Of a stretch of DNA of 64,000 nucleotides, positions 1,986 to 63,316 are shown piece after piece (within the stretch, counting starts at the first letter, position 1; every line of letters begins with the position of its first letter). The position numbers were made by a program, and so were the translations under genes. The notes beneath the pieces are model-generated. The model saw only the letters and a program-made list of their open reading frames with translations, had not been told where the DNA came from and ran no database searches. The DNA is from Patescibacteria group bacterium (GTDB taxonomy: Bacteria > Patescibacteriota > Minisyncoccia > UBA6257 > 2-01-FULL-56-20): the NCBI GenBank assembly GCA_038063755.1, contig JBBTUL010000011.1, positions 3,946 through 67,945 of the forward strand, read 5' to 3'.

Positions 1986-2024
1986 GCGTTTTTGTTTCTA
2001 GCCACGGAGGCATATACTTAAGCC

Positions 2025-2303: not shown

Positions 2304-2337
2304 TCGTTTACGCCCCACTTTTCCGCAAAGAGAACGG

Positions 2338-3543: not shown

Positions 3544-3547
3544 GATC

Positions 3548-5412: not shown

Positions 5413-6372
5413 ATGGAACTTACACAGGCAACGCCAAAGGCGAGTCCGCGAGATGTTTTTCTTCATCTCCTTGCTATTATCACCTTATATGCGAGCGCGA
5501 CTGCTCTTATCGCGTTGCTGTTTCAATACATTGAGCTCGGTTTTCCTGATTCGTTGAGAATCGAAACAGGTGGTCAATATTATCGCGATAGTATCTATCG
5601 GGCGATTCGTGTCGCTGTAGCTACGCTCATCGTTGTTTTTCCGGCATACATTACGGCAAGCCGCTTTTTGGGCAAGATCGGGCGTGTGACGCCAGAAAAG
5701 AGAAGTTTGAAAATCAGGAAATGGCTTCTTTACTTTACGGTTTTTATCGCCGCTCTTATTATGCTTGGAGACTTTGTGACGCTTGTTTACAACCTGCTGA
5801 ATGGAGAATCGAGTATTTCATTCTTTCTCAAAGTGCTTTCGGTGTTTCTCGTTGCCGGAAGTGTTTTTCTGTACTATCTTTGGGATTTGCATGAGACTTC
5901 GCCAAGTGGAAAGATGAAGTGGTTTTCGTATGCTGTCATTGTGTTGGTTTCAATCGCGGTGGTTTGCGGATTTTTTGCAGTAGGATCTCCGAGCGAGAAG
6001 CGCGACAGGGATTTCGATGCTCAACGTGTGGGCAACCTCCAGGCAATTCAGTCGTCGATTGTCCAATATTGGCGGAGTAAGGGAAGGCTGCCCGAAAACC
6101 TCGGTGTCCTTGCAGATCCACTGCGTTATGTAACCATCCCCGTAGACCCGCAGACAAAAGCATCGTATGAGTACGAGGTCAAGGGCGAGAAAACTTTTGT
6201 GTTGTGCGCAGATTTCAAATTCTCAAGCGCCCTAGAAGGCGCACCTGCGGTTTATATGCCATCGGTTGAATTGTGGGATCACGCGAGTGGACGATTCTGT
6301 TTCGAGAGAAGTATAGACGCGGATTTTTTCAAGGACAAATCGATGGGAATCGAGCCGTCTTTTCCAAGATAG
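5413..6372 (+). CDS. Polytopic membrane protein with C-terminal pilin/pseudopilin-like globular domain
   Basis: About five hydrophobic helices, then RDRDFDAQRVGNLQAIQSSIVQYW...IPVDPQTKASYEYEV..FVLCADF. That tail resembles the conserved post-helix region of type IV pilins / T2SS pseudopilins. Confidence 0.6.
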   Translation: MELTQATPKASPRDVFLHLLAIITLYASATALIALLFQYIELGFPDSLRIETGGQYYRDSIYRAIRVAVATLIVVFPAYITASRFLGKIGRVTPEKRSLKIRKWLLYFTVFIAALIMLGDFVTLVYNLLNGESSISFFLKVLSVFLVAGSVFLYYLWDLHETSPSGKMKWFSYAVIVLVSIAVVCGFFAVGSPSEKRDRDFDAQRVGNLQAIQSSIVQYWRSKGRLPENLGVLADPLRYVTIPVDPQTKASYEYEVKGEKTFVLCADFKFSSALEGAPAVYMPSVELWDHASGRFCFERSIDADFFKDKSMGIEPSFPR

Positions 6373-6410
6373 TCTTGATTTTATTTGGTTTATCGCGTAC
6401 TCTCTAGGGG

Positions 6411-6435
6411 CGTCGCCGGAGTGGCGACTTTTCTT
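6411..6435 (+). terminator. Rho-independent terminator hairpin (GTCGCC-ggagt-GGCGAC + TTTTCTT)
   Basis: Perfect 6-bp GC-rich stem followed by a T-run, directly after the 5413-6372 CDS. Confidence 0.55.
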
Positions 6436-6440
6436 AACTT

Positions 6441-8264: not shown

Positions 8265-8847
8265 CGTTCAAGGGGTAAACGAGGTAGTTCTTGGTTGTAT
8301 CAAAGAAGGCGGAGTCGGTGTCTTTCCGACAGACACCATCTATGGAATCGTCGGATCGGCTTTTCAGAAAAAAGCTGTTCAGAGGATTTATCGCTTAAAA
8401 CGCAGGGAAAGGAAAAAACCATTCATTATTCTTATTTCTTCGGTGTCAGAAATAAGAAGATTCGGAATCCACCTTTCTGCGAAAAAAGAAAGGTTTTTAC
8501 GGAGTCTTTGGCCGGCGAAAGTGAGCGTCCGTATCACGTGCCCTGCGCGGAAATTCAGATATCTTCATCGAGGACTTTCGTCGTTAGTGTTTCGCCTACC
8601 ACCAAAAAAAATGTTACGGGAGATTTTGAAAAAAACAGGGCCGCTTGTCGCTCCGAGCGCTAACGTTTCGGGTATGCCTCCGGCGAAAAATGTTTGGGAA
8701 GCGAGACGATATTTTGGGTCAAGCGTTGATTTTTATGTCGATGGAGGAACCATTGTCGGAAAGCCGTCGACGGTCATCGGATTCGGAGTAGGCGGCGCAA
8801 TTATTGTTCTACGAAAGGGGGCGGGAAGGATTCCGCAGATGATATAA
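8218..8847 (+). CDS. tsaC: L-threonylcarbamoyladenylate synthase YrdC/TsaC family
   Basis: GGVGVFPTDTIYGI motif typical of YrdC/Sua5. Overlaps the typA end; the true start may be TTG 8257. Confidence 0.8.
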   Translation: MKTTKSASKKDLRLPSVQGVNEVVLGCIKEGGVGVFPTDTIYGIVGSAFQKKAVQRIYRLKRRERKKPFIILISSVSEIRRFGIHLSAKKERFLRSLWPAKVSVRITCPARKFRYLHRGLSSLVFRLPPKKMLREILKKTGPLVAPSANVSGMPPAKNVWEARRYFGSSVDFYVDGGTIVGKPSTVIGFGVGGAIIVLRKGAGRIPQMI

Positions 8848-8854
8848 TTAGCGA

Positions 8855-10525
8855 ATGATTCTGGATGATTTGCGGGGGGCAGTTCGCGGAGAGGTTTTAG
8901 GCGATGAGCAGTCGCTTTCTAAGTACAGTCACGATGCCTCCATATTTGAAGTAAAGCCGCAGGCGGTAGTACAACCACTCGACGTGGAGGATATAAAAAG
9001 CCTCGTTCGGTTCGCAACGGAAAAAAACGAGCAAGGGGAGCGAGTTTCGCTCTCCGGCCGTGCCGCAGGGACTGATATGAGCGGCGGACCGCTTACCGAG
9101 TCGATCGTAGTCGACTTCATGAAGCACCTAAACCATGTTGTTTCCGTTTCCCCGGAAGTCAACAGCCAAGGAGTCATAACTGGAGGGTCAGCCGTAACGG
9201 AGCCCGGAGTGTTTTATAGGGACTTCGAAAAAGAAACGATGAAGGTGAATCTCATCATGCCTTCATACCCGGCCTCACGCGAACTTTGTGCAATCGGAGG
9301 AATTGTTTCAAACAATTCGGGAGGAGAAAAAACGCTTATGTTCGGAAAAACCGAAGATTACGTGAGCCGCCTTAAGGTGGTCTTGAGCGATGGGAATGAA
9401 TACGAGTTTCGTTCGCTTTCTCCCGAAGAGCTCGCCAAAAAAAGGGAGCTCAAGACTTTTGAGGGAGAGATTTATCGAAAAATGTTTAAGCTTCTCGAAG
9501 AGAACTACGAAACGATTCAGCGTGCGCGCCCTGATGTCTCAAAAAATTCCGCGGGGTACTTTTTGTGGAATGTATGGGACAAAAAGAAGTTTGATCTTAC
9601 CAAGTTATTTGTTGGTGCGCAGGGTACGCTCGGTCTTATCACCGAAGTCGAATTTCAACTTGTTCCGGTCAAAAAGCATTCGCGTATGGTAATAGTTTCG
9701 CTTCGAAACACCGACGTGGTGAGCGAGATGATCAACGTGATACTTTCCTTCAAGCCGGAGAGCTTCGAGTCGTATGATGACAAAACGCTCAAGCTTGCTA
9801 TGAAATTTGCTCCCGAACTGGTCCGGAAGCTTAAAAAGAATATTTTTGTCCTTGCATGGGAATTTCTTCCGAGCATTTTAGCGATGCTCCGTATCGGATT
9901 TCCAAAGCTTGTTTTACTTGTCGAGTTCAACGGAGACAACGAAGCTGAACTCGAGGAGAAGACAAAAGAAGTTGCGAAAGCGCTCAAGCGTTTTCGCTCT
10001 CCAGTGCGGAGAACGCGGAGCGAAGAAGAGGGGAAGGAGTACTGGGAAATTCGAAGAGAGAGCTTCAGCCTGCTGCGTGGCCACGTGAAGGACAGGCACA
10101 CCGTTCCCTTTATAGACGATGTTATCGTAAAACCCGAACACCTTCCTGAATTCCTACCGAAACTCGACGCCATCCTTGCGCCGTACAAAGACAAGATGAT
10201 TTACACGATTGCCGGGCACGAAGGAAATGGAAACTTCCATATTATTCCTCTTATGAAAATTGAAGATCCAGAAACTCGCGCGCTCATTCCCAAAATCTCA
10301 GATGCGGTTTACGACCTGGTGCTCGAGTATGGAGGTTCGATTACGGCAGAACACAATGATGGAATTATCCGGACGCCATACCTTACGAAGATGTATGGGG
10401 AGGGGGTCGTCAAATTGTTCGAGGATACGAAGAACATTTTCGATCCAAAAGGCATTTTTAACCCGGGAAAGAAGGTCAGGGGGACTCTCGAGTATGCCAT
10501 GAGCCATATCCGTGAGCGGTGGTAG
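8855..10525 (+). CDS. FAD-binding oxidoreductase (FAD-linked oxidase / GlcD-like dehydrogenase)
   Basis: N-terminal PCMH-type FAD-binding domain (RAAGTDMSGGPL, GGIVSNNSGGEK). C-terminal FAD-oxidase domain. 556 aa. Confidence 0.8.
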   Translation: MILDDLRGAVRGEVLGDEQSLSKYSHDASIFEVKPQAVVQPLDVEDIKSLVRFATEKNEQGERVSLSGRAAGTDMSGGPLTESIVVDFMKHLNHVVSVSPEVNSQGVITGGSAVTEPGVFYRDFEKETMKVNLIMPSYPASRELCAIGGIVSNNSGGEKTLMFGKTEDYVSRLKVVLSDGNEYEFRSLSPEELAKKRELKTFEGEIYRKMFKLLEENYETIQRARPDVSKNSAGYFLWNVWDKKKFDLTKLFVGAQGTLGLITEVEFQLVPVKKHSRMVIVSLRNTDVVSEMINVILSFKPESFESYDDKTLKLAMKFAPELVRKLKKNIFVLAWEFLPSILAMLRIGFPKLVLLVEFNGDNEAELEEKTKEVAKALKRFRSPVRRTRSEEEGKEYWEIRRESFSLLRGHVKDRHTVPFIDDVIVKPEHLPEFLPKLDAILAPYKDKMIYTIAGHEGNGNFHIIPLMKIEDPETRALIPKISDAVYDLVLEYGGSITAEHNDGIIRTPYLTKMYGEGVVKLFEDTKNIFDPKGIFNPGKKVRGTLEYAMSHIRERW

Positions 10526-38894: not shown

Positions 38895-39902
38895 TTGTGC
38901 TATAATGCAAAAATGAGAAATTGGCTCAGAGATCATTTTCTTCCGCATCAAGGGAATGAACAAAAGCCGCAGCTGCTCCGCTCGCAAGCGGCGATTCTTC
39001 TTTTTGTCCTGGTTCTTTTCCTAGAGCTTGGATTTTTCCTCCGAACTTCCGTTGACGGGAAACTAGATACGTTTTTTGCCGCAGTTTTGCCGAGCGTCCT
39101 TGTCGACAAGACCAATGAAGTTCGTATTTCAGAGAGGGTTGGGTTATTAAAACAAAGTCCGGCGCTTGAAGTTGCGGCTATCGCCAAGGCGAAGGATATG
39201 GCGAAAAAAGGATATTTTGCGCATACGAGCCCCGACGGAGTGAGTCCGTGGTCTTGGATCAAAGGGGCGGGGTACACATACAGCCATGCGGGAGAAAATC
39301 TTGCGATAAATTTTACGGATTCTCGCGATGTCGTCGATGCATGGCTTGCGTCCCCCCGACATCGTGCAAATCTCTTAAACGGAAAATATACAGAGATCGG
39401 CATTGCGACCGCGGAGGGCGTTTATGAAGGGCGCGACGCGATATTCATCGTTCAGTTTTTTGGACGTCCTGCACGACCGAAAACAAGGCTCGCGGAAAAA
39501 GACACTGACACAATTAATATTTCGCCCTCCGGAGGAAAGAGTGTCTTGGAAAACAGGCCGATTGTTTCGGAGGCGGTTGTTTTAAAAAATACTCAAGCGA
39601 TTGCGGTAAAGGGAGAGATCGATGAAAACTTCATTGCGGAGACTACGGGAAGCACGGTTTCAATGCTCACGCCCTACGCAACCATTTCGCAGAAGATATT
39701 CGCAAATCCGAAGATGACGCTAACGACTCTTTTTTCGATTCTCGCCGCGGCGATTTTTGCAGCGCTACTCTTTATGCTCGCGCTCAACACCCGCATCGTT
39801 CATCCGAAGCTTATCGCGAACGGAATTTTACTCCTTGTTCTTATTGACGGATTTTTCCTTCTGAACGACTATCTTACGCTTGCTCGTTCGAGTATTGAGT
39901 AA
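38895..39902 (+). CDS. CAP/SCP/PR1-like domain protein with N- and C-terminal TM anchors
   Basis: GYFAHTSPDG...YSHAGENLA...ASPRHRANLL matches the bacterial CAP (YkwD-like) domain. Confidence 0.75.
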   Translation: MCYNAKMRNWLRDHFLPHQGNEQKPQLLRSQAAILLFVLVLFLELGFFLRTSVDGKLDTFFAAVLPSVLVDKTNEVRISERVGLLKQSPALEVAAIAKAKDMAKKGYFAHTSPDGVSPWSWIKGAGYTYSHAGENLAINFTDSRDVVDAWLASPRHRANLLNGKYTEIGIATAEGVYEGRDAIFIVQFFGRPARPKTRLAEKDTDTINISPSGGKSVLENRPIVSEAVVLKNTQAIAVKGEIDENFIAETTGSTVSMLTPYATISQKIFANPKMTLTTLFSILAAAIFAALLFMLALNTRIVHPKLIANGILLLVLIDGFFLLNDYLTLARSSIE

Positions 39903-40872
39903 TCGCTTTCCCAAGAACGGCGAGAGCTTCACGCGCGTTTTTGGTTTCCATGAGTTGAACGCGCAATTCGCGAGCTCCAGAAAATCCCTCAACGTAGGAT
40001 TTAAAATGTTTTTTCATATTGGCGAAATTTTTTATGTCGCCCAGTAGTTTTTCAAAATAACCAATGTGTTCGGAAAGTGCCTGTATGCGTTCAGTTGGCG
40101 TCGGGGAGTACCCCGTGAAAAACCACGGGTTGCCGAATAAACCGCGCCCAATCATGACGCCATCGGCACCACTTTCTTTTGCCCTTATTTTCGCCTCTTC
40201 TATCGAGCGGACATCTCCATTTCCGATGATAAGTGTTTTGCTATTTAGTCTGTTGCGAATATCGACAGCCTTTTCGATCGCGTCCCAGTTCGCCGGAACT
40301 TTCGAAAGTTCTTTTTTCGTTCGTGCGTGAAGCGTGATTGCCGCCGGCTCTTCGGCGAGGAGTTCCGGAAGCCAGATGTCGAGTTCGTCCTCCGCATATC
40401 CAATCCTCGTCTTTACGGAAACGGGAAGTCCATTCGACACTTCTTTCGTCACGCGAATAATTTCTCTGGCAACCTTCGGGTTTTTAATGAGCGCCGCTCC
40501 CGCGCCTTGACGGCACACGCCCTTGTCGGGACAACCCATATTAATGTCGACACCGTCAAACCCGAGTTTCGCGACGAGTGCCGAGGCCCTTTTCATGAGT
40601 TCGATGTCGGAAGAAAATATCTGCGCCACGATAGGCCGCTCTTCGGAAGAAAAAAGAAAGTCTTTCGAGAGCACGTCAAAATTGCCGCGGAAAAGGCCGT
40701 CGGCAGAGACAAATTCAGTCCAAAAAACATCTGGGCCGCCCTTGCGATCATTTCGCTTGCTAAGATCGCCGTATTTCACAAACATTTTTCGAAATGCAGC
40801 ATCGGTAACGTTTGCCATGGGTGCAAGGCAGAAAAAAGGACGCGGAAGGTTGTCCCAAAATGATTTTTTCAT
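39874..40872 (-). CDS. dus: tRNA-dihydrouridine synthase
   Basis: FFCLAPMANVTD and the internal Cys motif. The ORF opens at 40920, but ATG 40872 (MKKSFWDN) is the likely start. Confidence 0.85.
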   Translation of the reverse strand: MKKSFWDNLPRPFFCLAPMANVTDAAFRKMFVKYGDLSKRNDRKGGPDVFWTEFVSADGLFRGNFDVLSKDFLFSSEERPIVAQIFSSDIELMKRASALVAKLGFDGVDINMGCPDKGVCRQGAGAALIKNPKVAREIIRVTKEVSNGLPVSVKTRIGYAEDELDIWLPELLAEEPAAITLHARTKKELSKVPANWDAIEKAVDIRNRLNSKTLIIGNGDVRSIEEAKIRAKESGADGVMIGRGLFGNPWFFTGYSPTPTERIQALSEHIGYFEKLLGDIKNFANMKKHFKSYVEGFSGARELRVQLMETKNAREALAVLGKAITQYSNEQA

Positions 40873-40916
40873 GCGAGTCCTGTGTATTGGAGCACGGGGT
40901 CGATGTCGAAGTTTAG

Positions 40917-41318
40917 TCATGTGCTGCCTTTGAGCGAGGAAAAATAGTCTTCTGCTATTTTGTTATCGTGAAATCCAAGGTCCATTTTTTCAATGGTGGA
41001 TTCATCGAAGTACTGGATCTTTTGACCTTCGTGAAGCTGGATGTGTGCCGCATCCAAGTTCATCTTTGCATAGTACATGTGCTCAATCTTTTCCGGCCAA
41101 TCATATGTTCGGAAAAATAAGATATTTGGTATCTTGAGTTCCATTTCCTCTTTCATTTCTCGCGTGATTGCTTCTTGTGGTGTTTCCCCGGCTTCAACTA
41201 CGCCTCCAGGGATGTACCATCGACTTGGATATGGGATATTCGGCTTGTTGTCTCGTAACAAAAGCAGTATTTTGTTATCATCGTTTTGGATAATGATTCC
41301 TACGGTATTCTTCTTCAT
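40917..41318 (-). CDS. NUDIX hydrolase
   Basis: Nudix box GGVVEAGETPQEAITREMKEEMEL. Confidence 0.8.
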   Translation of the reverse strand: MKKNTVGIIIQNDDNKILLLLRDNKPNIPYPSRWYIPGGVVEAGETPQEAITREMKEEMELKIPNILFFRTYDWPEKIEHMYYAKMNLDAAHIQLHEGQKIQYFDESTIEKMDLGFHDNKIAEDYFSSLKGST

Positions 41319-41951: not shown

Positions 41952-42596
41952 TTAGTCGACCTCAGGACGCAAACCGACAAAATCAAAGGTATCTTTGTCG
42001 AACGAAAACTTGGTGAGCGTTCCGGTTTCAACCGAAAACTCCTCGTGCCGATCTCTGCCTGCTTTTCCGAGTATCGGCAAGACGGCCCTGAGGCATCCCT
42101 TGTGCGTGACGATGAGAATATTTTCTCCCGCATCGTTTTCATCCGCTATTTCCTCAAGGGCAGAGAATAGCCTGCGTTCCATCTGTTCCCACGATTCGCC
42201 GCCTTCGGGAATAAAACCGAACCGCCCATCGATGCTCATATTCTCGAGATTCTTTGCAACCTCGAACCACTTCATATCTTTCCATGCTCCCCAGTTGCGC
42301 TCCCGCAAACCGTCTCTTGCTTTGATCGGCAGATTCAAAGCATCCGCAATCACCTCGGCGGTTTGATACGATCGACCAAGCGGGGAGGAATAGATATCTG
42401 TCACGCGAACACCGTTTTTCTTAAAGTAGCTGGCAACCGATACGGCCTCCCGCCTGCCCCGTTCGGTAAGCGGTGCATCATTCATGACGGTGGCTTGATC
42501 GACGAAGACATTGTCCTCGCTTTGCCCGTGCCGGATAAACCAAAAGGATATCTTGGTTGATCTCTTGGAAATCTTTTGTTTTAGGCGTTCGGACAT
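41952..42596 (-). CDS. Histidine phosphatase (phosphoglycerate-mutase-like) family protein
   Basis: RHGQS catalytic motif near the N-terminus. C-terminal LIVTHKGCLRAV motif. Confidence 0.75.
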   Translation of the reverse strand: MSERLKQKISKRSTKISFWFIRHGQSEDNVFVDQATVMNDAPLTERGRREAVSVASYFKKNGVRVTDIYSSPLGRSYQTAEVIADALNLPIKARDGLRERNWGAWKDMKWFEVAKNLENMSIDGRFGFIPEGGESWEQMERRLFSALEEIADENDAGENILIVTHKGCLRAVLPILGKAGRDRHEEFSVETGTLTKFSFDKDTFDFVGLRPEVD

Positions 42597-42773: not shown

Positions 42774-43592
42774 ATGAAAAAGGCAAGCAAGATAATAACG
42801 CTTAAAAAACTGGGGAAGGTAGTGGAGCCCCGAAAAGTCACTTTGATCAGCGGATCTTTTGACCCATTTAACTCTTACTACCGCAAACTTCTTACGTGGG
42901 CATCGCTCCAGTCAAGACCCTTGGTTGTTGTCGTGCACACCGACAGGGCAGTAAGCATCAGGAGAGGTCTTTCAAGACCAACAGAAAACCAAAAAAAAAG
43001 AGCAGAAAATGTTGCCGGTTTGGATTTTGTCGATTACGTGGTTATTTCAAGTAAGGGTGCCCATGATAAAAAAATCGTAAAGTTGCTCAAGCCCAGGCTT
43101 CTGTTGTTCCAGCAAGACAACACAAGCTTTCTTGCGGGGCTGTTTAGCATAATCAATCGTAAGTTCCCAGGTATCGGAATCCGTGTATCTCCCATAAAAA
43201 AAGAAATCGTTATTTCCACTGTTCCTTCCAAAATTACTCCTAATAATATAAAGAACCCGATCCTGAAAAGGGTATTGGAACTGGCAAGGACATCAACCGC
43301 TCCGGTCGGGAGAGTCTCCGCCGTTTTGGTTTCAAAGAGCAAGGTGCTAGCCGAATCATCTAATCTTGCGGGGGGCGAGCATGCCGAGAAAGTAATTTTA
43401 GATAGATTGTTGGGTAAAAACATGGAAGGATGTTCTTTATACGTTCTCATTCCTCCTTGTCCCATGTGTGCCGACAGCATCATCCGCGCCAAGCTGAAAA
43501 ATGTTTATTACTTATTCAACTACGGAGATAAAATGGGTGTTGAGCGTTTGCATGAGGCGGGTATCGTTGTCAGGAAAATTAAATTGGTATAA
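42774..43592 (+). CDS. Fusion protein: PPAT/cytidylyltransferase-like domain (HxGH degenerated to NSYY) + TadA/CDA-like zinc deaminase
   Basis: N-terminal LISGSFDPFNSYY resembles the (T/G)xFDxxHxGH nucleotidyltransferase fold but lacks both His. C-terminal GGEHAEKV...PCPMCA is the H(A/C)E...PCxxC deaminase zinc site with TadA-like context. Confidence 0.7.
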   Translation: MKKASKIITLKKLGKVVEPRKVTLISGSFDPFNSYYRKLLTWASLQSRPLVVVVHTDRAVSIRRGLSRPTENQKKRAENVAGLDFVDYVVISSKGAHDKKIVKLLKPRLLLFQQDNTSFLAGLFSIINRKFPGIGIRVSPIKKEIVISTVPSKITPNNIKNPILKRVLELARTSTAPVGRVSAVLVSKSKVLAESSNLAGGEHAEKVILDRLLGKNMEGCSLYVLIPPCPMCADSIIRAKLKNVYYLFNYGDKMGVERLHEAGIVVRKIKLV

Positions 43593-43601
43593 CTTGATTG
43601 T

Positions 43602-44429
43602 ATGGAAAAGCTAGATTCCAATATCCCCATCATCCGGCACCTGGAAGACCAGGAAAACATCTTGAAGTTCGGACGCGACGGAGATTTGGTTCCGGGACAA
43701 GAAGAAGCGGCAAGGCGGATCGGAGAAAAAATCCTTGAAGACGCAAAACGAGAGAAAAAAGGAGCGATTATGTTGGTTTGCTCAAACAAAAAAAGGAGCA
43801 CTCAAACGGCGCATTTGGTTGTTGGAGAAATAAAGAAAATCGAAAGCAGTATTAAAACAAGAATCGTTCAAGAAGACCGTTTAGCTCCCATTGATGAAGG
43901 AGGGTTCGTTTTACCGGCCGATTACCGGGAAGGAGAAACATTCGAGGGACTTCCTCTCGCAAACAAGGCTTTCAACAAGGAGGCGTTCGATGAAGCAAAC
44001 GACCTATACAGATTCGGTGACCCCGTTTTACGGAACGACGGAACGTACAAATACCCAGAGTTGGTACCATATTTTAAGAGCTATGGGGAGAGCAACAGAG
44101 ATTTGATGATTAGGATTTATGAGCTCATTATCGAAACGACCCAAAAAATAGACAAATTTGATTCTAGAACAAAAGTTTTTGTTGTAACCCACTCCCAGCT
44201 CTATCAGATTTTTAGAAACTTGATGGTGGTTGCAAAGATGATCAAAACCGAAGGACTTAAGTTTGAGACCGGAGAGGTTCCGAGATTATGCTGGAACGTG
44301 TATCAGAGTAGGACCAAGCAAGAAAAGCCAACCTATGAGGCAAACCTTGTACCGATCGACGACTTGCGCGATCCTGAGATCATAGAATTGCTGAAGAAAG
44401 AAATCGAATATTTAAAAAACCTTACCTAA
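43602..44429 (+). CDS. Divergent histidine-phosphatase-like protein
   Basis: PIIRHLE (RHxE) near the N-terminus and VFVVTHSQL second-His motif. Weak assignment. Confidence 0.45.
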   Translation: MEKLDSNIPIIRHLEDQENILKFGRDGDLVPGQEEAARRIGEKILEDAKREKKGAIMLVCSNKKRSTQTAHLVVGEIKKIESSIKTRIVQEDRLAPIDEGGFVLPADYREGETFEGLPLANKAFNKEAFDEANDLYRFGDPVLRNDGTYKYPELVPYFKSYGESNRDLMIRIYELIIETTQKIDKFDSRTKVFVVTHSQLYQIFRNLMVVAKMIKTEGLKFETGEVPRLCWNVYQSRTKQEKPTYEANLVPIDDLRDPEIIELLKKEIEYLKNLT

Positions 44430-44433
44430 ACCC

Positions 44434-44928
44434 ATGAGCGACGAAAAAGAGCAAAAAATGAACACCAAGTATGTGGGACATCATATTTCTTCTGGGGGTT
44501 TTATCTTCCACGAAGACAAAGACACTGGTCTTCTGTCGGTGCTGCTTATCAAGAACAAAAAGGGAGAGTACTGGATACCAAAAGGCCACATTGAGGAGGG
44601 CGAGGATCAGATAGCTGCGGCATTTAGAGAAATTGAGGAAGAGGTCGGTCTCACGAAAGATCAGTTAACATACATCGGCCTTTGTCATCTGCACAAATTT
44701 TCTTTCGTCGACGACGGCGGGAACCCGAATACCAAGGATGTTTATATGAATCTTTTTGGGGTCCACGAAAAGCATGATCTGAAAAAAGAGGAGGGGGCGA
44801 CGGATCTCACGGATGCGGGATGGTTCGAGTTCTCAAGGGCCCTGGAAATGATCATCCCTTACAGCAAGAACGAGTTGATCAAGGCCAAGGAAATGTTCGA
44901 AAATTATTTACGAAGTTCAAGCTCATGA
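44434..44928 (+). CDS. NUDIX hydrolase
   Basis: Nudix box GHIEEGEDQIAAAFREIEEEVGL. Confidence 0.8.
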   Translation: MSDEKEQKMNTKYVGHHISSGGFIFHEDKDTGLLSVLLIKNKKGEYWIPKGHIEEGEDQIAAAFREIEEEVGLTKDQLTYIGLCHLHKFSFVDDGGNPNTKDVYMNLFGVHEKHDLKKEEGATDLTDAGWFEFSRALEMIIPYSKNELIKAKEMFENYLRSSSS

Positions 44929-45632
44929 GCAGAGGCTTCGAAGAGGTGAAAAGGAGTCTTCCGAATCAACCTTTCGCAGAGGACCTGGTTTGTTTCATTG
45001 TGTTCGGATCAAGCGTGGTAAACGCCAACATGGAGAAGGCTCCCGATGATGTGGATGTTTGCGTCGTTGCGAGCAACCGCAGGGCGGATCTGCGCCAGAT
45101 TTCGGAGTTTATATTTGATAGTTTCGAAAAGCCAGACTTCAGAATATATTTTCAAGATGAAATAGACAGCGATCTGCAATTTATGGATGTCGGGATTGGT
45201 GTTTTTGCGATGGAATACTTTGCGAATGGCATTACCTTGTTCGGAGAAAATATTTTTATTAAGAAACTGCCTCAAATCAGCAAACTGAAGTTGAAGGAAA
45301 GCTATTTGAATAAAATCTTCGAGTATATTATACGAATCCGGGTGGCCTACATTGCAAAGACTTCAACATATGAGTATAAAATGTGGCACATCTATAAGTA
45401 TGTGATACGTCTCTTGATAGACATTCTGTTATACAACGACTATATCGTTTACGGCGATCTGAAAAAAATGACAAAAATGGAGATTATCGACCTGTGCAAA
45501 AACAAGGGAATTATACGGAAAGATGTGGAAATCGATTTTACCAACCTAGAAAAAATGTATAAATTGTTTGAGGAAGTGAACTTGTATGTCGTAAATGCCC
45601 ATACCCGCCCCCGAAACGAAGGCTTACTCTAG
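44925..45632 (+). CDS. Pol-beta-superfamily nucleotidyltransferase (ANT/Lnu-like architecture)
   Basis: FGSSVVNANMEKAPDDVDVCVV is the hG[GS]...D.D NTase signature, followed by a helical C-terminal domain. ATGA overlap with the upstream NUDIX stop. Strongly AT-rich. Confidence 0.6.
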   Translation: MSRGFEEVKRSLPNQPFAEDLVCFIVFGSSVVNANMEKAPDDVDVCVVASNRRADLRQISEFIFDSFEKPDFRIYFQDEIDSDLQFMDVGIGVFAMEYFANGITLFGENIFIKKLPQISKLKLKESYLNKIFEYIIRIRVAYIAKTSTYEYKMWHIYKYVIRLLIDILLYNDYIVYGDLKKMTKMEIIDLCKNKGIIRKDVEIDFTNLEKMYKLFEEVNLYVVNAHTRPRNEGLL

Positions 45633-45677: not shown

Positions 45678-46820
45678 ATGAGGAAAATCATAATATTTGG
45701 AGTTTTGGCGGGGTTCCTGCCGGTCATGGCACTCGCCGCGTATGTGGGAGCAGGGGAGAGTGTCATGGTTCCTCCGCCGCTTGGCGGGGCAGAGCCTGTA
45801 GTTCAGAACGCTTATCTTGTGGGCGGAACGGTTAACGTCGCGAATCCCGTTCGGGGAGATGTGGTGACTGCCGGAGGTACGATTGTTGTCTCCGGAAAAG
45901 TGGAGCAGGATATTTTTGCTTTCGGTGGCAATATAAGCATGCTCGGCATTTCTGCCGAAGACATCCGCACTGCCGGTGGTAACATCACTATTGGCGGAAA
46001 GGTGAGCGGCGAAATTCTTGTGGCGGGAGGACAGATTATGATAACGCCGGACACGACCATTGCCCGAGATTCATACATTGCGGGAGGCACGCTCGTTTTT
46101 TCAGGAACTGAAAATGGCAATCTTACCGCGGTTGGTGGTAATATCCGTATTGACGGTGTGGTCAATGGCAATCTCTTGATCAAGCAAGCGGACAAAGTTA
46201 CTTTCGGACCGCAATCGGTTGTGAAGGGTACTATCGAATATTTTGCGCCTGCGGAGGCGACGATTCTCGATGGGGCTCAACTTGCAACCGCGCCGGTGTT
46301 CCATGAGATAGAAAAAAATCGCGCTGCTGGTGCGCGCCCGCGGCTCTTCGCCGCATTCTTTGGGATCGCGATCTTTTTGAAGGCGCTCGCTCTTCTCGGT
46401 GCCGCGTATCTTCTGTGGTATTTACGCCGTCGCGACATGACAACCGCGATCGAGCAGGTTTACGGGCATTTTTGGAGCGTACTGTTCCGAGGGTTTTCAG
46501 TGCTTGTCCTCATTCCGGCTGCAAGTATCATTCTCTTATTTACTGTCATTGGATGGATTCCTGCGGCGGCAATGCTCGCCGTCTACGCCGCACTCCTTGT
46601 TCTTGCGGCTCCGGTTGCCACGATAATCGCGACCTCGTTTCTCATGACGCTTCTAAAGAAGAGCCGTACGGATCTTGCCTGGTATCACATTCTTGGAGGA
46701 CTTGTCGTCGTGAAGCTTGTCGTGGTTGTTCCGGTGGTGGGTTGGCTTATCTGCCTTGTGATCTACCTAGTGTCTCTCGGCGCGGTGGCGGGCATTGTGA
46801 AAACAAAGTTTTCGGCATAA
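45678..46820 (+). CDS. Secreted/membrane protein with bactofilin-like beta-helical G-rich repeats and C-terminal multi-TM domain
   Basis: Signal peptide, then ~10 repeats of (V/I)xGx(V/I)xxAGGx(V/I). Then 4 TM helices. Confidence 0.55.
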   Translation: MRKIIIFGVLAGFLPVMALAAYVGAGESVMVPPPLGGAEPVVQNAYLVGGTVNVANPVRGDVVTAGGTIVVSGKVEQDIFAFGGNISMLGISAEDIRTAGGNITIGGKVSGEILVAGGQIMITPDTTIARDSYIAGGTLVFSGTENGNLTAVGGNIRIDGVVNGNLLIKQADKVTFGPQSVVKGTIEYFAPAEATILDGAQLATAPVFHEIEKNRAAGARPRLFAAFFGIAIFLKALALLGAAYLLWYLRRRDMTTAIEQVYGHFWSVLFRGFSVLVLIPAASIILLFTVIGWIPAAAMLAVYAALLVLAAPVATIIATSFLMTLLKKSRTDLAWYHILGGLVVVKLVVVVPVVGWLICLVIYLVSLGAVAGIVKTKFSA

Positions 46821-58192: not shown

Positions 58193-61100
58193 GTGCCCCA
58201 TGACCACATGAGCATTTTCTGGGAGAAAAACAAAGAGGGAAACATGATCGACGCGTTGGGTCGGAGGAAGAGCCTCTCTTTTATTTTCTCGCTGGGCCGC
58301 CGAAATACCCGTGGTGTGGTTGACCTCCGACTGCCCTTTCGCCGACGATATCCCGTCATAGCCGCATCCCTGCTCCTTGTAACCGTCATAGCCGCTTTCG
58401 GCGCGCGATCACTCCTTACGAAGGCGGAGGTGACCGATTTTCATCCGCTTACGTGTCTCGGGAGCTGGGAACATACATCCCGAGCCGAGGGGAAACCAGA
58501 AGCTCTTAACGATGCCACACTTCTCACGGCGGATGTTTCCGCGATATTTACGCAACCGACGAGCCAAATTTTTTGCGGCAACTTCATTCCTGATGATTTT
58601 AAAGAAGCAGGCACGATAACGAGTGTGGGATTGACCTTTACGTGGAAGATTGAAGGAGGGGATCAAGAGGGAAGTGTTGACCAATCCTCATCGGAAGAAA
58701 CGGTATTGCCTCCGGCAGGCGAAACGAATTTGGAGATGCCGACATCATCGGCACTTCTCGCGCCGAAGATAAAATTCTTCAGAGTTGCAAAAGCCGAGGA
58801 GGTGGTTCCACCGGAGCCGATGCCCGCGCCGGTTGAGACCGTCCCCGAAGAAACCCCGACGCCCACCCCAACCCCAGAGCTGCCTTCACCTTCCCCGGAA
58901 GTTATTCAAGACGGCGTGTCCGAACCGGAGGCGGTTCCTGTCGAAGAAAGCATCGTTCCGGAAAATGACGCTACTCCCGACGCGACATCTGGAGAAGTCC
59001 TCGGAGAATCCCAAGAGGCGGTTCCCGTAACCTCTTCGACGGAGAATGATGCGGGTAATGGTGTCGTGGATGAAAACCAAAACCCGGAAATTCCGTCGTT
59101 TGCTCCTTCCACTCCGCCGTTTCTCCGCGTGAGCTACAGTCTTGACGGTACGAACTGGTTTTCACTCGCCGACGTTTCCAGGGAGATGCTTGCCCAACTT
59201 ACGGTTTCCATTCCGCTTACTTCGTGGAGCGATCTAAAAAAACTTCAGATAGGGATCGAGGGAGTCCCTGCGGCGCTTCCGGTGCTTCCTAGAGTTCTCC
59301 TCGACGGGATGCTTCTCGAGGTGCACTACGAGATACCGCCGCTTTTCACGAACAACGAGCCGGACGAAGATATTGTTCCCGCTCCACAGGGATCGCTTCT
59401 TCCCGTTGTTCCCGTACTGCCTGCCATGGAAGGAGCGAGCACCGGCACTCCGCCTTCTTTCGGAGGAGATGAGTCGCCGAGTTTCGAGCTTGATATGGAT
59501 TCGCTCACGCCTATTCCGGAAAGTGAACTGCCTCCGCTTTCGTTTCACCATCCCGCGACAAGGAACTCTCTTTTTGGAAAAATAGCGAAGTGGTTGGGGG
59601 TCACCGGTTCCGCATTCGCACAGCAAAACGGAGAAACCCCGCCGCCGCTCCCCACGGCAGAAAACCCGATCATCGCGAGAGTTTTTAACCACGGGGACGA
59701 TGAGTTGGATATCCTTCCCCAGGTACTTCTTTCCAACAACCGCCTTAGGGTTAATGTTCCTCAACCGGCGGATCAGTTTGCTCCCGGGAAATATCTCCTC
59801 CGCGTCTGGGTGTGGCGCAACGGGAACATTTATTACACGGAAAACTCGTTTACCTGGGGCGTTCTCGCGATGAATCCGAACAAATTCGTTTATCTTCCGG
59901 GAGAGACATCGAAGATTGGCATCGCGGTTCTCGACGAGGGAGGTGACATGGTCTGCGATGCCAATGTCCGGCTCGAGATCACCACGCCCTCCAGCACGGT
60001 GCGCACGCGCGCGACGAGTGACGGAAGTATTGTCGTGAACGAGGAATGTAATCTCAAGGGATTTACGGAGAGACCGGACTACGAAACCGATTATCAAGTA
60101 GAAGAGCCGGGTATCTATCAGACGAGGCTTACGGCGACAACGGAGAACGGAACGCATACCATATACGATTCATTCGAAGTGCGTGAGTCAGTTTCATTCG
60201 ATATCGAGCGAAAATCGGCCACGCGCATTTACCCTCCCACACCGTATCCCGTCCGCATTGCGATCAAGACAACAGAGGCGTTTTCCGGAGATATCGAAGA
60301 GCGCGTACCGCTCTCCTTCGAGGTGAAGCACATATCCCACGGAGGACAAGTTGTCCGCCGGAACGAGGACCAGGTTATTCGATGGGCGGTCGATCTCCCT
60401 GCGGGAGGAACAATCGAGCTTCTGTACGATTATCTTGCTCCCGAAGTAAGTCCCCAGTTCTACCTTCTCGGCCCCCTTCGGGTCGGTACTTTCTCCGAGA
60501 CCCGGCGTTGGCAGATCGCCGCCGACGCGATCGCTTCAAACTCGGCGAGGACGTTCTACAGCGTTACCAATAATGCGGGAAGACTCATGTGGGCTACGGG
60601 AGCATCGAATTCAACGGGAGCCGAAATCGCCGGTCCGGTCGGAACGGCTGCCACCTCCTCTTTTGTGAAAGCGGCACATGGACCGACCAGGGACGAGATT
60701 TTGGCCGGAATGATAAAACGTGATGGACTGCTTGCATTGTCGCTCGTTATCGGAAACCAGGATGCCGCAGGGGATGCGGTGCTTCAGTTTGATCAGGCAA
60801 GCGTCACTTCGGCTCAAGCATGCGATGCGGTGACATTCGGTTCCTGTTGGCGCGCATTTGATATCGCTTACGAACAACTATCGGGAGAGGGAATGGTCGC
60901 ATTTGCGAGCACGACGGCATCGCGGCTCGCGTATCGTACCTGGGACGGTACAAATTGGTCTCCGGCGACAACGAGCGCTCCGAGCGTTGTGAATATGGGG
61001 GGTACCGGCGCAATCCGGTGGGTAAGGCTTATTCCAAGAGGGGAAATGCTCAAAGGAAGCCGCTCGGACGAAATACTTGTTATCACTTCGGATGCCAACT

Positions 61101-63316
61101 CCGATATCTTCGCAGGTATTTGGAATGGTTCGGCATGGACCGCCACAACAACCATCACCGCCGCCGCCTCGACGTTCCACACACAGAATTTTGACGGAGC
61201 ATGGGAGGAATCCTCCGGAGACGCGATGGTTGTCTGGGCGGAGGGAACAGCGGCGACCACCACTCCGTATCGATACAAGAAATGGACGCGATCCTCGACG
61301 ACATGGGCTTCTTCGGGGTTGCCCCTGCCGGCGATGGGAGCATCGCATATCGGACACTGGGTTGCGGCAAAGGCGGCGCCTATCGCGGGCAAAAATCATA
61401 TTGCGGTTATTACAAGCTCGGCGACCGCCGTCGGGAATAATTGCGGCACCGGAACCAACTGCCGAGCTCAACCATTTATTTGGGACGGTTCAGGTTTTAC
61501 GATGGGAAACGAATGGACGTCGCAAGAACCCGTCTGGCAACAAGCCGTGAACGTTGCGGTTGAATCGGTGAATACAAACGTACAGGTCTTTTACGCATCT
61601 TCTATTGCGCAGAGCACCACCGTTGTAAGTTCCTATGAAACATGGATAGAAGGAACGGGATTTTCCGCCGTAACCACTCTTGCCGGGTCAATGGGAGATG
61701 ATCTTGCGGGGGTACAAACGACGGCGCACCCGAATTCCACCGAAGTGTTTGTGACGGTTGAAGATGTTGATGCCGACTGTAACGGCATTGCGTGGAACGG
61801 GGCGACGACGACGGCCGCATGGGATATAACGGGGTGTAACTCCGCCGGAGAGACCGCGCTTGCTCCTCTGTCTCACACGGCGCAACCGAGCGAAGGATCC
61901 GCATTTTGGGTGGTAGCGAAGCCCTACTCGCCATGGCAGAGGAACTGGCGTTTCTACGGAGACATTACGGAAAACGACCCGGACAACACTGCGGACGTCT
62001 TGGGGACGAGCGAAAACGGATCCCCGGCGATTTCCCAGGAAGGATTCGCCCGGCTCCGAATGCAGTTTGTGGAATTAACGAACATTGCCCAGACCGATGC
62101 CCGAAAGAAGATCCAATGGACCACGGAAAACCCGGACTATTCGACATCCACCTGGACCGACGTGGGAGATACGTCGGAAACAGGAGCGGTGTGGAGATAT
62201 GCGACAGCGGCGGAAACATGCGCCAACTGTAGTGACAACACCACAATCGGAGCGACTCGTCTTACGGGAAGTTCGCAGTCCGGTACTTATATTTCGGACA
62301 AGGACGCGGCTGCGGGAACAGGAATGGATCACACTGCGCTTGCGCTCTCGGAATACGATTATCCGATTAAGGCGGAAAACGCAACCTCGGGTACCACATA
62401 CTATTTCCGCGCGTACGACAACGACCAGCTCACTCCCGTCTTTCGGGAGCAGGACAGCGACGGATCCAACGACTGCTCAAGCGCGGCATGTGTGTATCCA
62501 AGCGCCACCGTTCAAGCGCCAGCCAATAACCTTCCGACACTTTCCGCGCTCTTACTAAACGGAGGGTCGGCTATCACTGTTATAGAAAATACCTCGACTT
62601 CAATTGCGGTTACGGGTACTGCCACGGATCTCGATGGAAACGCGGACATTTCTTTCGCGACGGGAACCATCTACCGGTCGGGAGTCGGCGGGGGAGCCTC
62701 ATGCACGAGCAACGAGAATAATTGTTATCGCGTCGCATCCTCTTCATGTGCCAAATCAAACTGTTCGGGAAACAGTTGTGATTTCACCTGCACCGCGAAG
62801 ATACAGTATTTTGCGGACCCTACCGACTCGGGAGCGTTCTCTGCGGAAAACTGGCTTGGACAAATCACTGCGACGGATGCCGCGGGAGCGACGGGAGTTT
62901 CGACAACCGTCTCCGGTGTCGAACTCAACACGCTTTTTTCGCTGAATATCACCAATTCAATTAATTTCGGAAGTCTCCTGCCGGGAGGGGATAGCGGTGC
63001 CGTAAATCAGATTGCAACAACCACGAACACCGGGAATGCGGCGATCGATGTCGAATTCTCCGGGACAAATATGGTTTTCGGCGCGAATACCATCGCCGTA
63101 GGAAATGAAAGATACGCGACAAGCACCTTCACCTATTCGAGTTGTACGGTTTGTACCGCTCTTACCACCATTGCCACCGCCTACGAACTTGATCTTGCGA
63201 AACCTACCTCGACGGCTGTTGTGGAAGACACCGTTTTTTGGGGGTTAAGCGTACCGAACGGGAACCCGCCGGGAAGCTATACCGGTACGAGCACGTTTAC
63301 CGCGGTGACGGACTAA
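58193..63316 (+). CDS. Giant surface protein (1707 aa): TM anchor, Pro/Thr/Glu-rich linker, WDG(S/T)xW repeat region, C-terminal Cys-containing NNCYR domain
   Basis: GTG start. TM near aa 50-72. PEPMPAPVETVPEETPTPTPTPELPSPSPE linker. Repeats YRTWDGTNWS / IWNGSAWT / IWDGSGFT. C-terminal domain with the CTSNENNCYR motif. Confidence 0.8.
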   Translation: MPHDHMSIFWEKNKEGNMIDALGRRKSLSFIFSLGRRNTRGVVDLRLPFRRRYPVIAASLLLVTVIAAFGARSLLTKAEVTDFHPLTCLGSWEHTSRAEGKPEALNDATLLTADVSAIFTQPTSQIFCGNFIPDDFKEAGTITSVGLTFTWKIEGGDQEGSVDQSSSEETVLPPAGETNLEMPTSSALLAPKIKFFRVAKAEEVVPPEPMPAPVETVPEETPTPTPTPELPSPSPEVIQDGVSEPEAVPVEESIVPENDATPDATSGEVLGESQEAVPVTSSTENDAGNGVVDENQNPEIPSFAPSTPPFLRVSYSLDGTNWFSLADVSREMLAQLTVSIPLTSWSDLKKLQIGIEGVPAALPVLPRVLLDGMLLEVHYEIPPLFTNNEPDEDIVPAPQGSLLPVVPVLPAMEGASTGTPPSFGGDESPSFELDMDSLTPIPESELPPLSFHHPATRNSLFGKIAKWLGVTGSAFAQQNGETPPPLPTAENPIIARVFNHGDDELDILPQVLLSNNRLRVNVPQPADQFAPGKYLLRVWVWRNGNIYYTENSFTWGVLAMNPNKFVYLPGETSKIGIAVLDEGGDMVCDANVRLEITTPSSTVRTRATSDGSIVVNEECNLKGFTERPDYETDYQVEEPGIYQTRLTATTENGTHTIYDSFEVRESVSFDIERKSATRIYPPTPYPVRIAIKTTEAFSGDIEERVPLSFEVKHISHGGQVVRRNEDQVIRWAVDLPAGGTIELLYDYLAPEVSPQFYLLGPLRVGTFSETRRWQIAADAIASNSARTFYSVTNNAGRLMWATGASNSTGAEIAGPVGTAATSSFVKAAHGPTRDEILAGMIKRDGLLALSLVIGNQDAAGDAVLQFDQASVTSAQACDAVTFGSCWRAFDIAYEQLSGEGMVAFASTTASRLAYRTWDGTNWSPATTSAPSVVNMGGTGAIRWVRLIPRGEMLKGSRSDEILVITSDANSDIFAGIWNGSAWTATTTITAAASTFHTQNFDGAWEESSGDAMVVWAEGTAATTTPYRYKKWTRSSTTWASSGLPLPAMGASHIGHWVAAKAAPIAGKNHIAVITSSATAVGNNCGTGTNCRAQPFIWDGSGFTMGNEWTSQEPVWQQAVNVAVESVNTNVQVFYASSIAQSTTVVSSYETWIEGTGFSAVTTLAGSMGDDLAGVQTTAHPNSTEVFVTVEDVDADCNGIAWNGATTTAAWDITGCNSAGETALAPLSHTAQPSEGSAFWVVAKPYSPWQRNWRFYGDITENDPDNTADVLGTSENGSPAISQEGFARLRMQFVELTNIAQTDARKKIQWTTENPDYSTSTWTDVGDTSETGAVWRYATAAETCANCSDNTTIGATRLTGSSQSGTYISDKDAAAGTGMDHTALALSEYDYPIKAENATSGTTYYFRAYDNDQLTPVFREQDSDGSNDCSSAACVYPSATVQAPANNLPTLSALLLNGGSAITVIENTSTSIAVTGTATDLDGNADISFATGTIYRSGVGGGASCTSNENNCYRVASSSCAKSNCSGNSCDFTCTAKIQYFADPTDSGAFSAENWLGQITATDAAGATGVSTTVSGVELNTLFSLNITNSINFGSLLPGGDSGAVNQIATTTNTGNAAIDVEFSGTNMVFGANTIAVGNERYATSTFTYSSCTVCTALTTIATAYELDLAKPTSTAVVEDTVFWGLSVPNGNPPGSYTGTSTFTAVTD

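Follow-up and report, generated by a model that had tools for sequence, protein, structure and literature searches.

A degenerate cytidylyltransferase domain joined to a minimal zinc deaminase: a candidate cytosine-nucleotide deaminase family of Patescibacteria and DPANN archaea

Introduction

What purpose is served by a nucleotidyltransferase domain that has lost its signature motif and is joined to a zinc deaminase? The question is raised by a gene at positions 42774..43592 (plus strand) of a 64,000-nucleotide stretch of contig JBBTUL010000011.1 (the window, by which we mean this whole stretch), from the metagenome-assembled genome (MAG) of a groundwater member of the Patescibacteria, or Candidate Phyla Radiation (CPR). 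The initial annotation of the locus described an unusual two-domain fusion and suggested that it might be the tRNA adenosine-34 deaminase (TadA) of this lineage, or else a distinct nucleotide or nucleic-acid deaminase. On balance we lean towards a (deoxy)cytidine-nucleotide deaminase of ComEB descent, in which a dead cytidylyltransferase domain would serve as a nucleotide-binding, regulatory or structural module, and which would make (d)UMP in an organism dependent on salvage. Neither Patescibacteria nor DPANN archaea are known to synthesize nucleotides de novo, and the ways in which they balance their deoxynucleoside triphosphate (dNTP) pools are poorly known.

The 272-aa product is 100% identical to entry P0001, ‘MAG: deaminase [Patescibacteria group bacterium]’; contigs from the Hainich aquifer encode it too. 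Each of its two domains belongs to a known kind, and members of the family are already public under generic names (‘deaminase’, ‘adenylyltransferase/cytidyltransferase family protein’ and, at JGI, ‘cytidylyltransferase-like / RibD-like’). Our literature search found no paper on the fusion, on the motif-decay series or on the viral split pair presented below, and the 2011 survey of the deaminase superfamily makes no mention of the fusion (PMC3239186).

Architecture of the fusion

The gene is composed of the following parts:

42774..43592, plus strand: whole gene, a pseudo-cytidylyltransferase / zinc-deaminase fusion; open reading frame with ATG start, 272 aa
42774..43187, plus strand: N-domain, aa 1-138, a Rossmann domain of the HldC/RfaE-II / cytidylyltransferase fold (rfaE_dom_II match, Foldseek)
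42858..42881, plus strand: degenerate motif 1, FDPFNSYY replacing FDxxHxGH (translation; alignment with intact relatives)
43188..43256, plus strand: linker, aa 139-161, in place of the helix with the second nucleotidyltransferase motif (RxSTS/ISTT); coil, predicted local distance difference test (pLDDT) 67-71
43257..43589, plus strand: C-domain, aa 162-272, a minimal zinc deaminase of the helix-4 division (Pfam dCMP_cyt_deam_1, structural model)
43380..43388, plus strand: HAE, with zinc ligand His203 and catalytic Glu205; H and E invariant in all clades, HGE in P0030
43455..43469, plus strand: PCPMC, with zinc ligands Cys229 and Cys232; invariant in all clades

An AlphaFold2 (AF2) model of the 272-aa fusion, built on 13 homologues, reached a pLDDT of 87.6 and a predicted template modelling score (pTM) of 0.82. 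It comprises a Rossmann-type N-domain at aa ~20-138, a poorly ordered linker at 139-161 and then the deaminase domain, and its pTM indicates that the two domains would pack against each other in a fixed arrangement. Both are kept in the 13 full-length homologues (43-100% identity), a pairing far beyond chance, and the linker between them is poorly conserved (majority fraction 0.45, as opposed to ~0.7 in both domains). The open reading frame, the Pfam and NCBIfam matches, the model and the homologues therefore agree on the two-domain fusion that had been proposed for positions 42774-43592, and the predicted structure combines an HldC-like N-domain with a C-domain resembling dCMP deaminase and TadA. 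The two Pfam families named by the initial annotation fared differently: dCMP_cyt_deam_1 (PF00383) matched aa 164-247 with E = 1e-11 and 45 bits, above its gathering score of 25, whereas CTP_transf_like (aa 25-120, E = 1.5e-3) reached 19.2 bits, just under its gathering score of 21.

The deaminase domain and its affinity

The deaminase superfamily's helix-4 division is characterized by a helix between strands 4 and 5, which makes strand 5 parallel to strand 4 (PMC3239186). In the AF2 model such a helix (254-261) lies between strands at 243-246 and 265-268, and the H(C)xE and PCxxC motifs that provide the zinc ligands and the catalytic residue are present as HAE (aa 203-205) and PCPMC (aa 228-232). 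These are the ligands that had been recognized initially; the spacing given for them, ~25 aa, was not borne out, as 22 residues lie between E205 and P228. Judged by its sequence, the C-domain is shown to be a minimal zinc deaminase whose catalytic site is intact.

What kind of deaminase it is cannot be read from the NCBIfam models applied to the window protein, none of which came near its cut-off: RibD (TIGR00326) scored 30 bits at aa 171-267 (cut-off 156, the reductase domain of RibD being absent), ComEB (TIGR02571) 26.7 bits at aa 213-271 (cut-off 219), the anti-phage dCTP deaminase (NF041025) 21.8 bits at aa 213-266 (cut-off 400) and TadA (NF008113) 21.4 bits at aa 180-246 only (cut-off 150). 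It is the wider family, together with the C-terminal layout, that ties the domain to the dCMP-deaminase (ComEB) lineage. The top PDB sequence match of a profile of the window clade was the S-TIM5 dCMP deaminase 4p9c (1.5e-10), over the whole domain (173-273) and up to the last residue of 4p9c, whereas the alignments to TadA stop at 246-250. Foldseek comparisons of the C-domain gave template modelling (TM) scores by target of 0.68-0.74 for the S-TIM5 dCMP deaminase (4p9e 0.74), versus 0.52-0.65 for TadA structures. The tail that follows PCxxC is 40 aa long in the window protein, and among the nearest stand-alone deaminases it measures 36-45 aa in those that are ComEB-like and 53-67 aa in those that are TadA-like. 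Its composition is also that of ComEB, with strand 4, helix 4, strand 5 and the chain end in the order VYYLFNYGD...GIVVRKIKLV; in the model the chain stops 4 residues past strand 5, and the C-terminal helix of TadA is absent.

The relatives point in the same direction. For the C-domain of P0018, from the sister clade, the ComEB model gave 5e-13 (49 bits), the dCTP deaminase model 1e-11 and TadA 1e-7, and for those of P0033 and P0040 ComEB gave ~1e-23 and 1e-20 (73-83 bits), with TadA at 1e-4 or undetected. Across the sister clade and the wider family the ComEB and dCTP-deaminase models outscore TadA by 5-19 orders of magnitude, an affinity that favours the fallback offered by the initial annotation, a distinct nucleotide deaminase. 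Set beside the dCMP deaminases themselves (S-TIM5 4p9c, T4 Cd 1vq2 and Bacillus subtilis ComEB), the fusion shares the helix-4 fold, HAE, PCxxC and the same C-terminal layout (strand 4 ‘VYY...Y’, helix 4, terminal strand 5 and a tail of ~40 aa). These enzymes, however, possess HAExNA and an insert of ~20-30 aa in which the structural zinc and the allosteric site for dCTP/dTTP are located, and the fusion has neither the signature nor the insert, whereas the fusion carries an extra N-terminal domain of 160 aa and scores 27 bits against the 219 of the ComEB model.

The N-terminal pseudo-nucleotidyltransferase domain

The N-domain matches NCBIfam rfaE_dom_II at aa 19-111 (E = 3e-11), and its Rossmann-type nucleotidyltransferase fold superposes on HldC 5xf2 with a Foldseek E-value of 9e-9 and a TM by target of 0.73-0.78. 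It shares this fold with HldC/RfaE domain II and with the GCT, ECT and CCT cytidylyltransferases. The initial annotation had called the domain PPAT-like; its assignment to the nucleotidyltransferase fold stands, but the kinship does not, HldC/RfaE-II and the ECT/GCT cytidylyltransferases being closer. In the sister clade the domain has remained intact, keeping GGxFDLxHxGH, RKG..RP, R76, VD and STS, and it matches human ECT (1e-16), HldC (2e-9) and TagD (4e-6), so that on sequence grounds this sister domain is a genuine member of the cytidylyltransferase family. We conclude that the N-domain descends from an active nucleotidyltransferase of the HldC/cytidylyltransferase type.

In the window clade, by comparison, the features of HldC, GCT, ECT and CCT have been replaced. 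The four residues N-S-Y-Y align column for column with H-V-G-H in the FDLFHVGH of intact relatives, as the initial annotation had supposed when it took NSYY for a degenerate HxGH; within the clade Y35/Y36 never vary and N33 hardly does, and the catalytic (T/H)xGH motif of HIGH-type nucleotidyltransferases is accordingly absent from the window protein. Also gone is the second nucleotidyltransferase motif (ISxT / RTEGISTT; (R)xSTS), in the place of which residues 139-161 form the linker, and the RKG lysine K64 has become arginine. No sugar-phosphate or alcohol-phosphate substrate is evident. Because HxGH has given way to NSYY, the STS helix to the linker and K64 to R, the N-domain of the window clade is predicted to be catalytically dead, and the loss of both motifs supports the earlier supposition that it is a non-catalytic module.

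A dead domain might be expected to erode; this one has been preserved. Clade members are 51-67% identical to the window protein in the N-domain and 42-64% in the C-domain, and since the former is conserved at least as well as the deaminase, with the linker alone relaxed, it is held by selection, that is, it is a pseudoenzyme module under purifying selection and no relic. Among its residues R63, R68 and R76 align with K44, K46/47 and R55 of TagD. Roles for these TagD residues are reported by Pattridge et al. 2003, and their transfer to the N-domain is presumptive.

A fusion family with graded motif decay

A profile search over 1.84 billion representatives, followed by a second search that started from P0018, the closest relative with intact motifs, revealed that the window group is one clade of a larger family of fusions, whose more than 80 clusters come from Patescibacteria and DPANN archaea. 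An example from the latter is P0178 of Ca. Nanoarchaeia, and the genomic contexts of the archaeal members are unmistakably archaeal. When species-representative genomes were scanned with a single peptide pattern, 3 loci were recovered.

All 13 full-length homologues of the window protein possess N-x-Y-Y at the HxGH site (G-x-Y-Y once). Across the clades of the family the site forms a graded series, running from HVGH, accompanied by RKG and (R)STS, through NxGH, NxEH and a group of NxEQ, NAEY, NYDQ and NENH, to NEYY and NSYY. In parallel with the decay of HxGH the second motif is lost, and so is the RKG lysine, STS being found only in HxGH members. Despite this decay of the N-domain, no clade departs from the H, E, P, C and C of the deaminase, and A204 almost never changes. 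Clade-by-clade loss of a nucleotidyltransferase active site within a strongly selected domain offers a clean natural case of pseudoenzyme evolution.

A stand-alone copy of the N-domain, P0233, was also seen in Pacearchaeota (L014-L016). It is 153 aa long, 59% identical to P0018, has intact HVGH and STS, and ends exactly where the linker would begin, as would either a natural truncation or a free-standing form of the nucleotidyltransferase; no deaminase that could be its split-gene partner lies downstream of it.

Related fusions and a viral gene pair

Relatives of the N-domain are joined to further deaminases, and these identify the company that it keeps. In P0029, P0033, P0040 and P0048 a member of its family precedes a bona fide ComEB-type domain complete with zinc insert (P0033 and P0040, though distant fusions, have this strand-2/helix-2 insert), and other members are fused to tetrameric cytidine deaminases (P0053, P0074 and P0158; cyt_deam_tetra ~1e-26 to 1e-29).

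The same two functions are also found as separate genes. On the viral contig L031 the gene order is NrdD, an NrdG-type activase, dUTPase, a ComEB-type dCMP deaminase, a nucleotidyltransferase and a radical-SAM gene (NrdD PF13597 1e-81; dUTPase NF001862 1e-49, above cut-off; dCMP deaminase 1e-23). The nucleotidyltransferase, a stand-alone homologue of the N-domain with intact HxGH, begins 3 nt after the dCMP deaminase gene, and it aligns with the family profile with an hhalign probability of 99.3% (E = 1.6e-20), the family-specific N-terminal extension included. On a divergent second viral contig, L034, whose nucleotidyltransferase is 58% identical, the two genes likewise abut, the gap in L031 and L034 being 0-3 nt. 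A survey of 80 viral loci with cytidylyltransferase-like genes detected a deaminase within 4 kb in 5 (L033 being the same contig as L031, and L108 and L112 looking like duplicates); the abutting arrangement occurs only in the two close relatives L031 and L034. The partnership of nucleotidyltransferase and dCMP deaminase thus takes two forms, a fusion and a pair of separate genes, once within a deoxynucleotide-synthesis cassette. A further viral locus, L032, was dropped, as it encodes an ordinary HldE-like protein of nucleotidyltransferase plus kinase.

Two other features of L031 may be recorded. Its NrdD gene (1804-4476) has an N-terminal NUMOD3 region of ~330 aa, of the homing-endonuclease type, and a small RyR-domain protein (1141-1509) is encoded upstream of it.

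Proposed function and alternative explanations

If the fusion is a cytosine-nucleotide deaminase, its C-domain would convert a free cytosine nucleotide (dCMP or CMP, possibly dCTP or CTP) to the uracil nucleotide, and would in this way supply dUMP for thymidylate synthesis in an organism living on salvaged nucleotides. We prefer this substrate class because of the ComEB-lineage affinity, the fusions to pyrimidine deaminases, the viral dNTP cassettes and the nucleotide-handling neighbours in bacteria. The N-domain would no longer transfer nucleotides, but may still bind a phosphorylated nucleotide, most plausibly (d)CTP, putatively through a new Tyr/Tyr/Trp pocket together with R63, R64/R68 and R76, basic residues that have been retained, and could then serve as an integral module, regulatory or scaffolding, of a deaminase without the classical allosteric insert. 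The NUDIX hydrolase and the phosphatase encoded downstream (see below) could perform the NTP-to-NMP steps around the fusion.

Several points weigh against this explanation. Ligand binding by the N-domain is our inference. The scores of the window protein itself discriminate poorly (RibD 30, ComEB 27 and TadA 21 bits, all far below cut-off), its single-sequence PDB matches slightly favour TadA over dCMP deaminase, its helix 2 reads HAEKVIL in place of the ‘HAExNA’ signature of ComEB, and it has none of the strand-2/helix-2 insert that gives classical dCMP deaminases their structural zinc and allosteric site, only 5 residues lying between N197 and H203. Beyond the protein, close viral adjacency is known from two contigs, the downstream trio of phosphatase-like, NUDIX and nucleotidyltransferase (NTase)-like genes also occurs in Sungbacteria without the fusion, and the genes present in some further contexts (DegT aminotransferase, epimerase, radical SAM, cupin and carbamoyltransferase) suggest chemistry of another kind.

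The alternative put forward initially, that of a TadA with an added handle domain, is disfavoured, and we hold it to be very improbable. TadA converts tRNA-Arg(ACG) to ICG in Bacteria and Eukarya, not in Archaea. It shares with the fusion the division of the fold, a similar helix 2 and PCxMCA motif and a comparably short strand-2/helix-2 loop, the best single-sequence PDB matches of the window protein are TadA structures (7cph 9e-7, 2b3j 1.5e-6), and no other deaminase exists in the window, in line with the earlier remark that no separate tadA is visible there, nor in the 365 kb of related loci examined. Arginine codons of the CGN type are used heavily, and hence the organism needs some solution for decoding them; our literature search on tadA in this CPR lineage found nothing. 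On the other hand, the chain ends after strand 5 with a tail of ComEB-like length, and has neither the C-terminal helix nor the GA that follows PCxMC in TadA; in the complex of Staphylococcus aureus TadA with RNA (2b3j) that helix, which comes after strand 5, is reported to form the wall that binds the anticodon loop of the tRNA. The cut-off of the TadA model is 150 bits and the window protein reaches 21, the M of PCxMC varies among family members, and it is with pyrimidine deaminases and dNTP enzymes that the N-domain is associated, by fusion or as a neighbour. No tRNA-Arg gene was found within the window. The family moreover extends into DPANN archaea. As is well established, archaea have neither wobble inosine nor TadA, so the archaeal members cannot be TadA. 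An editor or mutator of some other polynucleotide, for example by C-to-U change in RNA or single-stranded DNA, is still harder to credit: Pfam MafB19-deam, a family of nucleic-acid deaminase toxins, matches at 4.9e-9 and CDAT8 (3g8q), which deaminates C8 of archaeal tRNA, is weakly similar, but MafB19-deam overlaps the TadA/dCMP core generically, and the fusion lacks THUMP or any comparable RNA-binding domain, has no extended loops for a substrate and is not set among toxin or immunity genes.

A different small molecule is a doubtful but more serious contender. The substrate might be of the RibD/GuaD type (a pyrimidine, a pterin or flavin intermediate, or guanine) or a nucleotide-activated sugar or other metabolite produced by enzymes encoded nearby, with the N-domain gripping the nucleotide handle of that substrate. 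RibD is the top NCBIfam deaminase model of the window protein (30 bits, aa 171-267), the short strand-2/helix-2 loop is closer to RibD and TadA than to ComEB, the N-domain is similar to HldC (ADP-heptose) and to RibL-like proteins, 3glv among them, the operon NUDIX proteins in L003-L005 best match NudB, and sugar-nucleotide-type genes lie near several clades (DegT, epimerase, NTP_transf_3, a PMI-like cupin and carbamoyltransferase). All of these scores are nevertheless far below cut-off, the RibD reductase domain is missing, the sugar genes are not conserved across clades, and those fused or adjacent deaminases that can be identified are all cytosine-specific, of the ComEB or CDA type. CPR and DPANN organisms are, moreover, not generally known to synthesize riboflavin or folate. 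Finally, the fusion might deplete nucleotides during phage infection in the manner of the AvcD/DCD dCTP deaminases, its N-terminal nucleotide-binding domain gating a dCMP-deaminase-like domain. In AvcD-type anti-phage dCTP deaminases, as in the bifunctional dCMP/dCTP deaminase of chloroviruses, a dCMP-deaminase-like domain is able to use triphosphates, and AvcD (compared by hidden Markov model matches) also couples an N-terminal nucleotide-binding domain to a deaminase; the NCBIfam anti-phage model fits the family almost as well as ComEB, and PADLOC returned a dCTPase match at 1.2e-5. We nonetheless consider this improbable, as the matches are limited to the common zinc-site core (aa 210-266, 22 bits against 400), the N-domain is a HIGH-type Rossmann domain and not the P-loop kinase-like domain of AvcD, the archaeal members lie outside defence islands and PADLOC detected no defence genes around the window gene.

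One unlikely scenario is that a function was handed over in evolution. In the ancestor, a nucleotidyltransferase still active and using (d)CTP would have worked with a cytosine-nucleotide deaminase, as in the DPANN fusion and the viral split pair; Patescibacteria would then have lost catalysis stepwise (HVGH, NxGH, NxEH, NxYY) as co-operonic NUDIX or CYTH hydrolases took over the NTP-to-NMP step, the dead domain being exapted as a (d)CTP-sensing allosteric switch of a minimal deaminase without such a site. Were this the case, the intact members would be a previously unknown bifunctional dCTP-to-dUMP enzyme, acting as a dCTP pyrophosphatase of nucleotidyltransferase fold followed by dCMP deamination, and would constitute a new dUMP route for ultra-small cells.

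More generally, the fusion family may be the dCMP-deaminase equivalent of Patescibacteria and DPANN archaea, and hence their source of dUMP for thymidylate synthesis. The compact deaminase (~110 aa) falls within a size class of interest to base-editor engineering. For annotation, the gene should not be named tadA, ribD or hldE.

Genomic neighbourhood

The genes around the fusion in the window are the following:

43602..44429, plus strand: neighbour 1, a divergent histidine-phosphatase-like protein, 275 aa (RHLEDQ...VTHSQ); weak His_Phos_1 match; co-transcribed, 9-nt gap
44434..44928, plus strand: neighbour 2, a NUDIX hydrolase, 164 aa (Pfam NUDIX 5.7e-14); co-transcribed, 4-nt gap
44925..45632, plus strand: neighbour 3, a pol-beta-type NTase with a helical domain (ANT-like), 235 aa, with G-S...D-x-D; co-transcribed, 4-nt overlap with the NUDIX gene
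41952..42596, minus strand: histidine phosphatase, 214 aa, divergently transcribed (His_Phos_1 3e-43)
40917..41318, minus strand: MutT-like NUDIX hydrolase, 133 aa, in the divergent string (NUDIX 1.6e-16; MutT model 1.4e-14, below cut-off)
39874..40920, minus strand: dus, 1.85 kb from the fusion

The dus gene, which the initial annotation had placed beside the fusion, is some distance off on the opposite strand with three genes between, and the argument drawn from it is weak. A scan for terminators found none on the plus strand within the four-gene string that the fusion opens. Orthologues of neighbour 1 (52-65% identical) occupy the same position in L004, L007 and L025, and that of L004 scores 22 bits with His_Phos_1, above the gathering score. 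A search of PDB with the sequence of neighbour 3 gave no match, and the best PDB match of its model, AAD(9) 6sxj, is weak (TM ~0.5).

The same downstream string follows the fusion in L004 and L007. Elsewhere the company varies: carbamoyltransferase, then NUDIX, then a 238-aa protein in L003; nucleoside diphosphate kinase (NDK) and NUDIX alongside the fusion in L005; DJ-1, cupin, NTP_transf_2 and CYTH in L008 and L009; and, in clade 2 (L013 and L020-22), a long NDK gene directly preceding the fusion, in a neighbourhood that includes NUDIX, methyltransferase, DegT and epimerase. A NUDIX gene is found in 7 of the 9 bacterial contexts of the fusion family and in none of the 3 archaeal ones, and NDK is near the fusion in 3 bacterial contexts (L005, L013 and L020-22), possibly in a fourth. 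The archaeal members are single genes among those for ribosomal proteins, aminoacyl-tRNA synthetases and eRF1.

The trio of phosphatase-like, NUDIX and NTase-like genes is an autonomous module. It is conserved, with proteins of ~275, ~160 and ~235 aa, in several Parcubacteria lineages independently of the fusion (Sungbacteria, Vogelbacteria; L025-L030), and in four clusters (P0266, P0271, P0273 and P0288; ~380-400 aa) the NUDIX domain is fused to the 235-aa NTase-like protein. As the trio occurs without the fusion, its linkage to the fusion may be inherited synteny and not a shared pathway, and we have downgraded the trio from obligatory pathway partner to possible synteny.

Further proposals were rejected. 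A constant NTase partner across clades was not upheld, the 235-aa protein and the NTP_transf_2 proteins of L008/L009 having only G-S...D-x-D in common (hhalign probability 1%). Assignments of the NUDIX proteins to subfamilies (NudB, RppH, MutT) were abandoned, as the scores are below cut-off and mutually inconsistent. A defence system was likewise set aside, PADLOC on the fusion and six neighbours having returned only the weak zinc-core ‘dCTPase’ match and a generic NUDIX match. The NUDIX protein at 40917-41318 (minus strand) matches the PADLOC candidate defence family PDC-S07 over its full length (E = 2.8e-19), a match that may reflect a generic NUDIX model.

Some minor observations concern the related loci. 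The long NDK, 318-325 aa (L013 6957-7934; L020 4980-5936), consists of an NDK domain of ~140 aa and an unannotated C-terminal extension of ~180 aa; it belongs to loci of the NxEH/NxEQ clade and is preceded by a conserved 254-aa protein without a Pfam match. In L004 a gene for an isoleucyl-tRNA-synthetase-type protein of 1139 aa (5744-9163, minus strand; tRNA-synt_1, Anticodon_1) has an internal His_Phos_1 match, representing either an insertion or fusion of a histidine phosphatase or a merge in gene calling.

In the window itself, a 380-aa protein (45678-46820) with a weak DUF8173 match is encoded 45 nt after the four-gene string, and has an N-terminal signal or transmembrane segment, Gly-rich repeats and a hydrophobic C-terminal half. 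GC skew turns from positive to negative at ~50-52 kb, where the cumulative skew peaks, and nearly all large open reading frames upstream of this point are on the plus strand. Finally, the stretch from 58 to 64 kb, which coincides with an open reading frame of 1707 aa at 58193-63316, shows an increase in GC content from ~0.47 to ~0.55.

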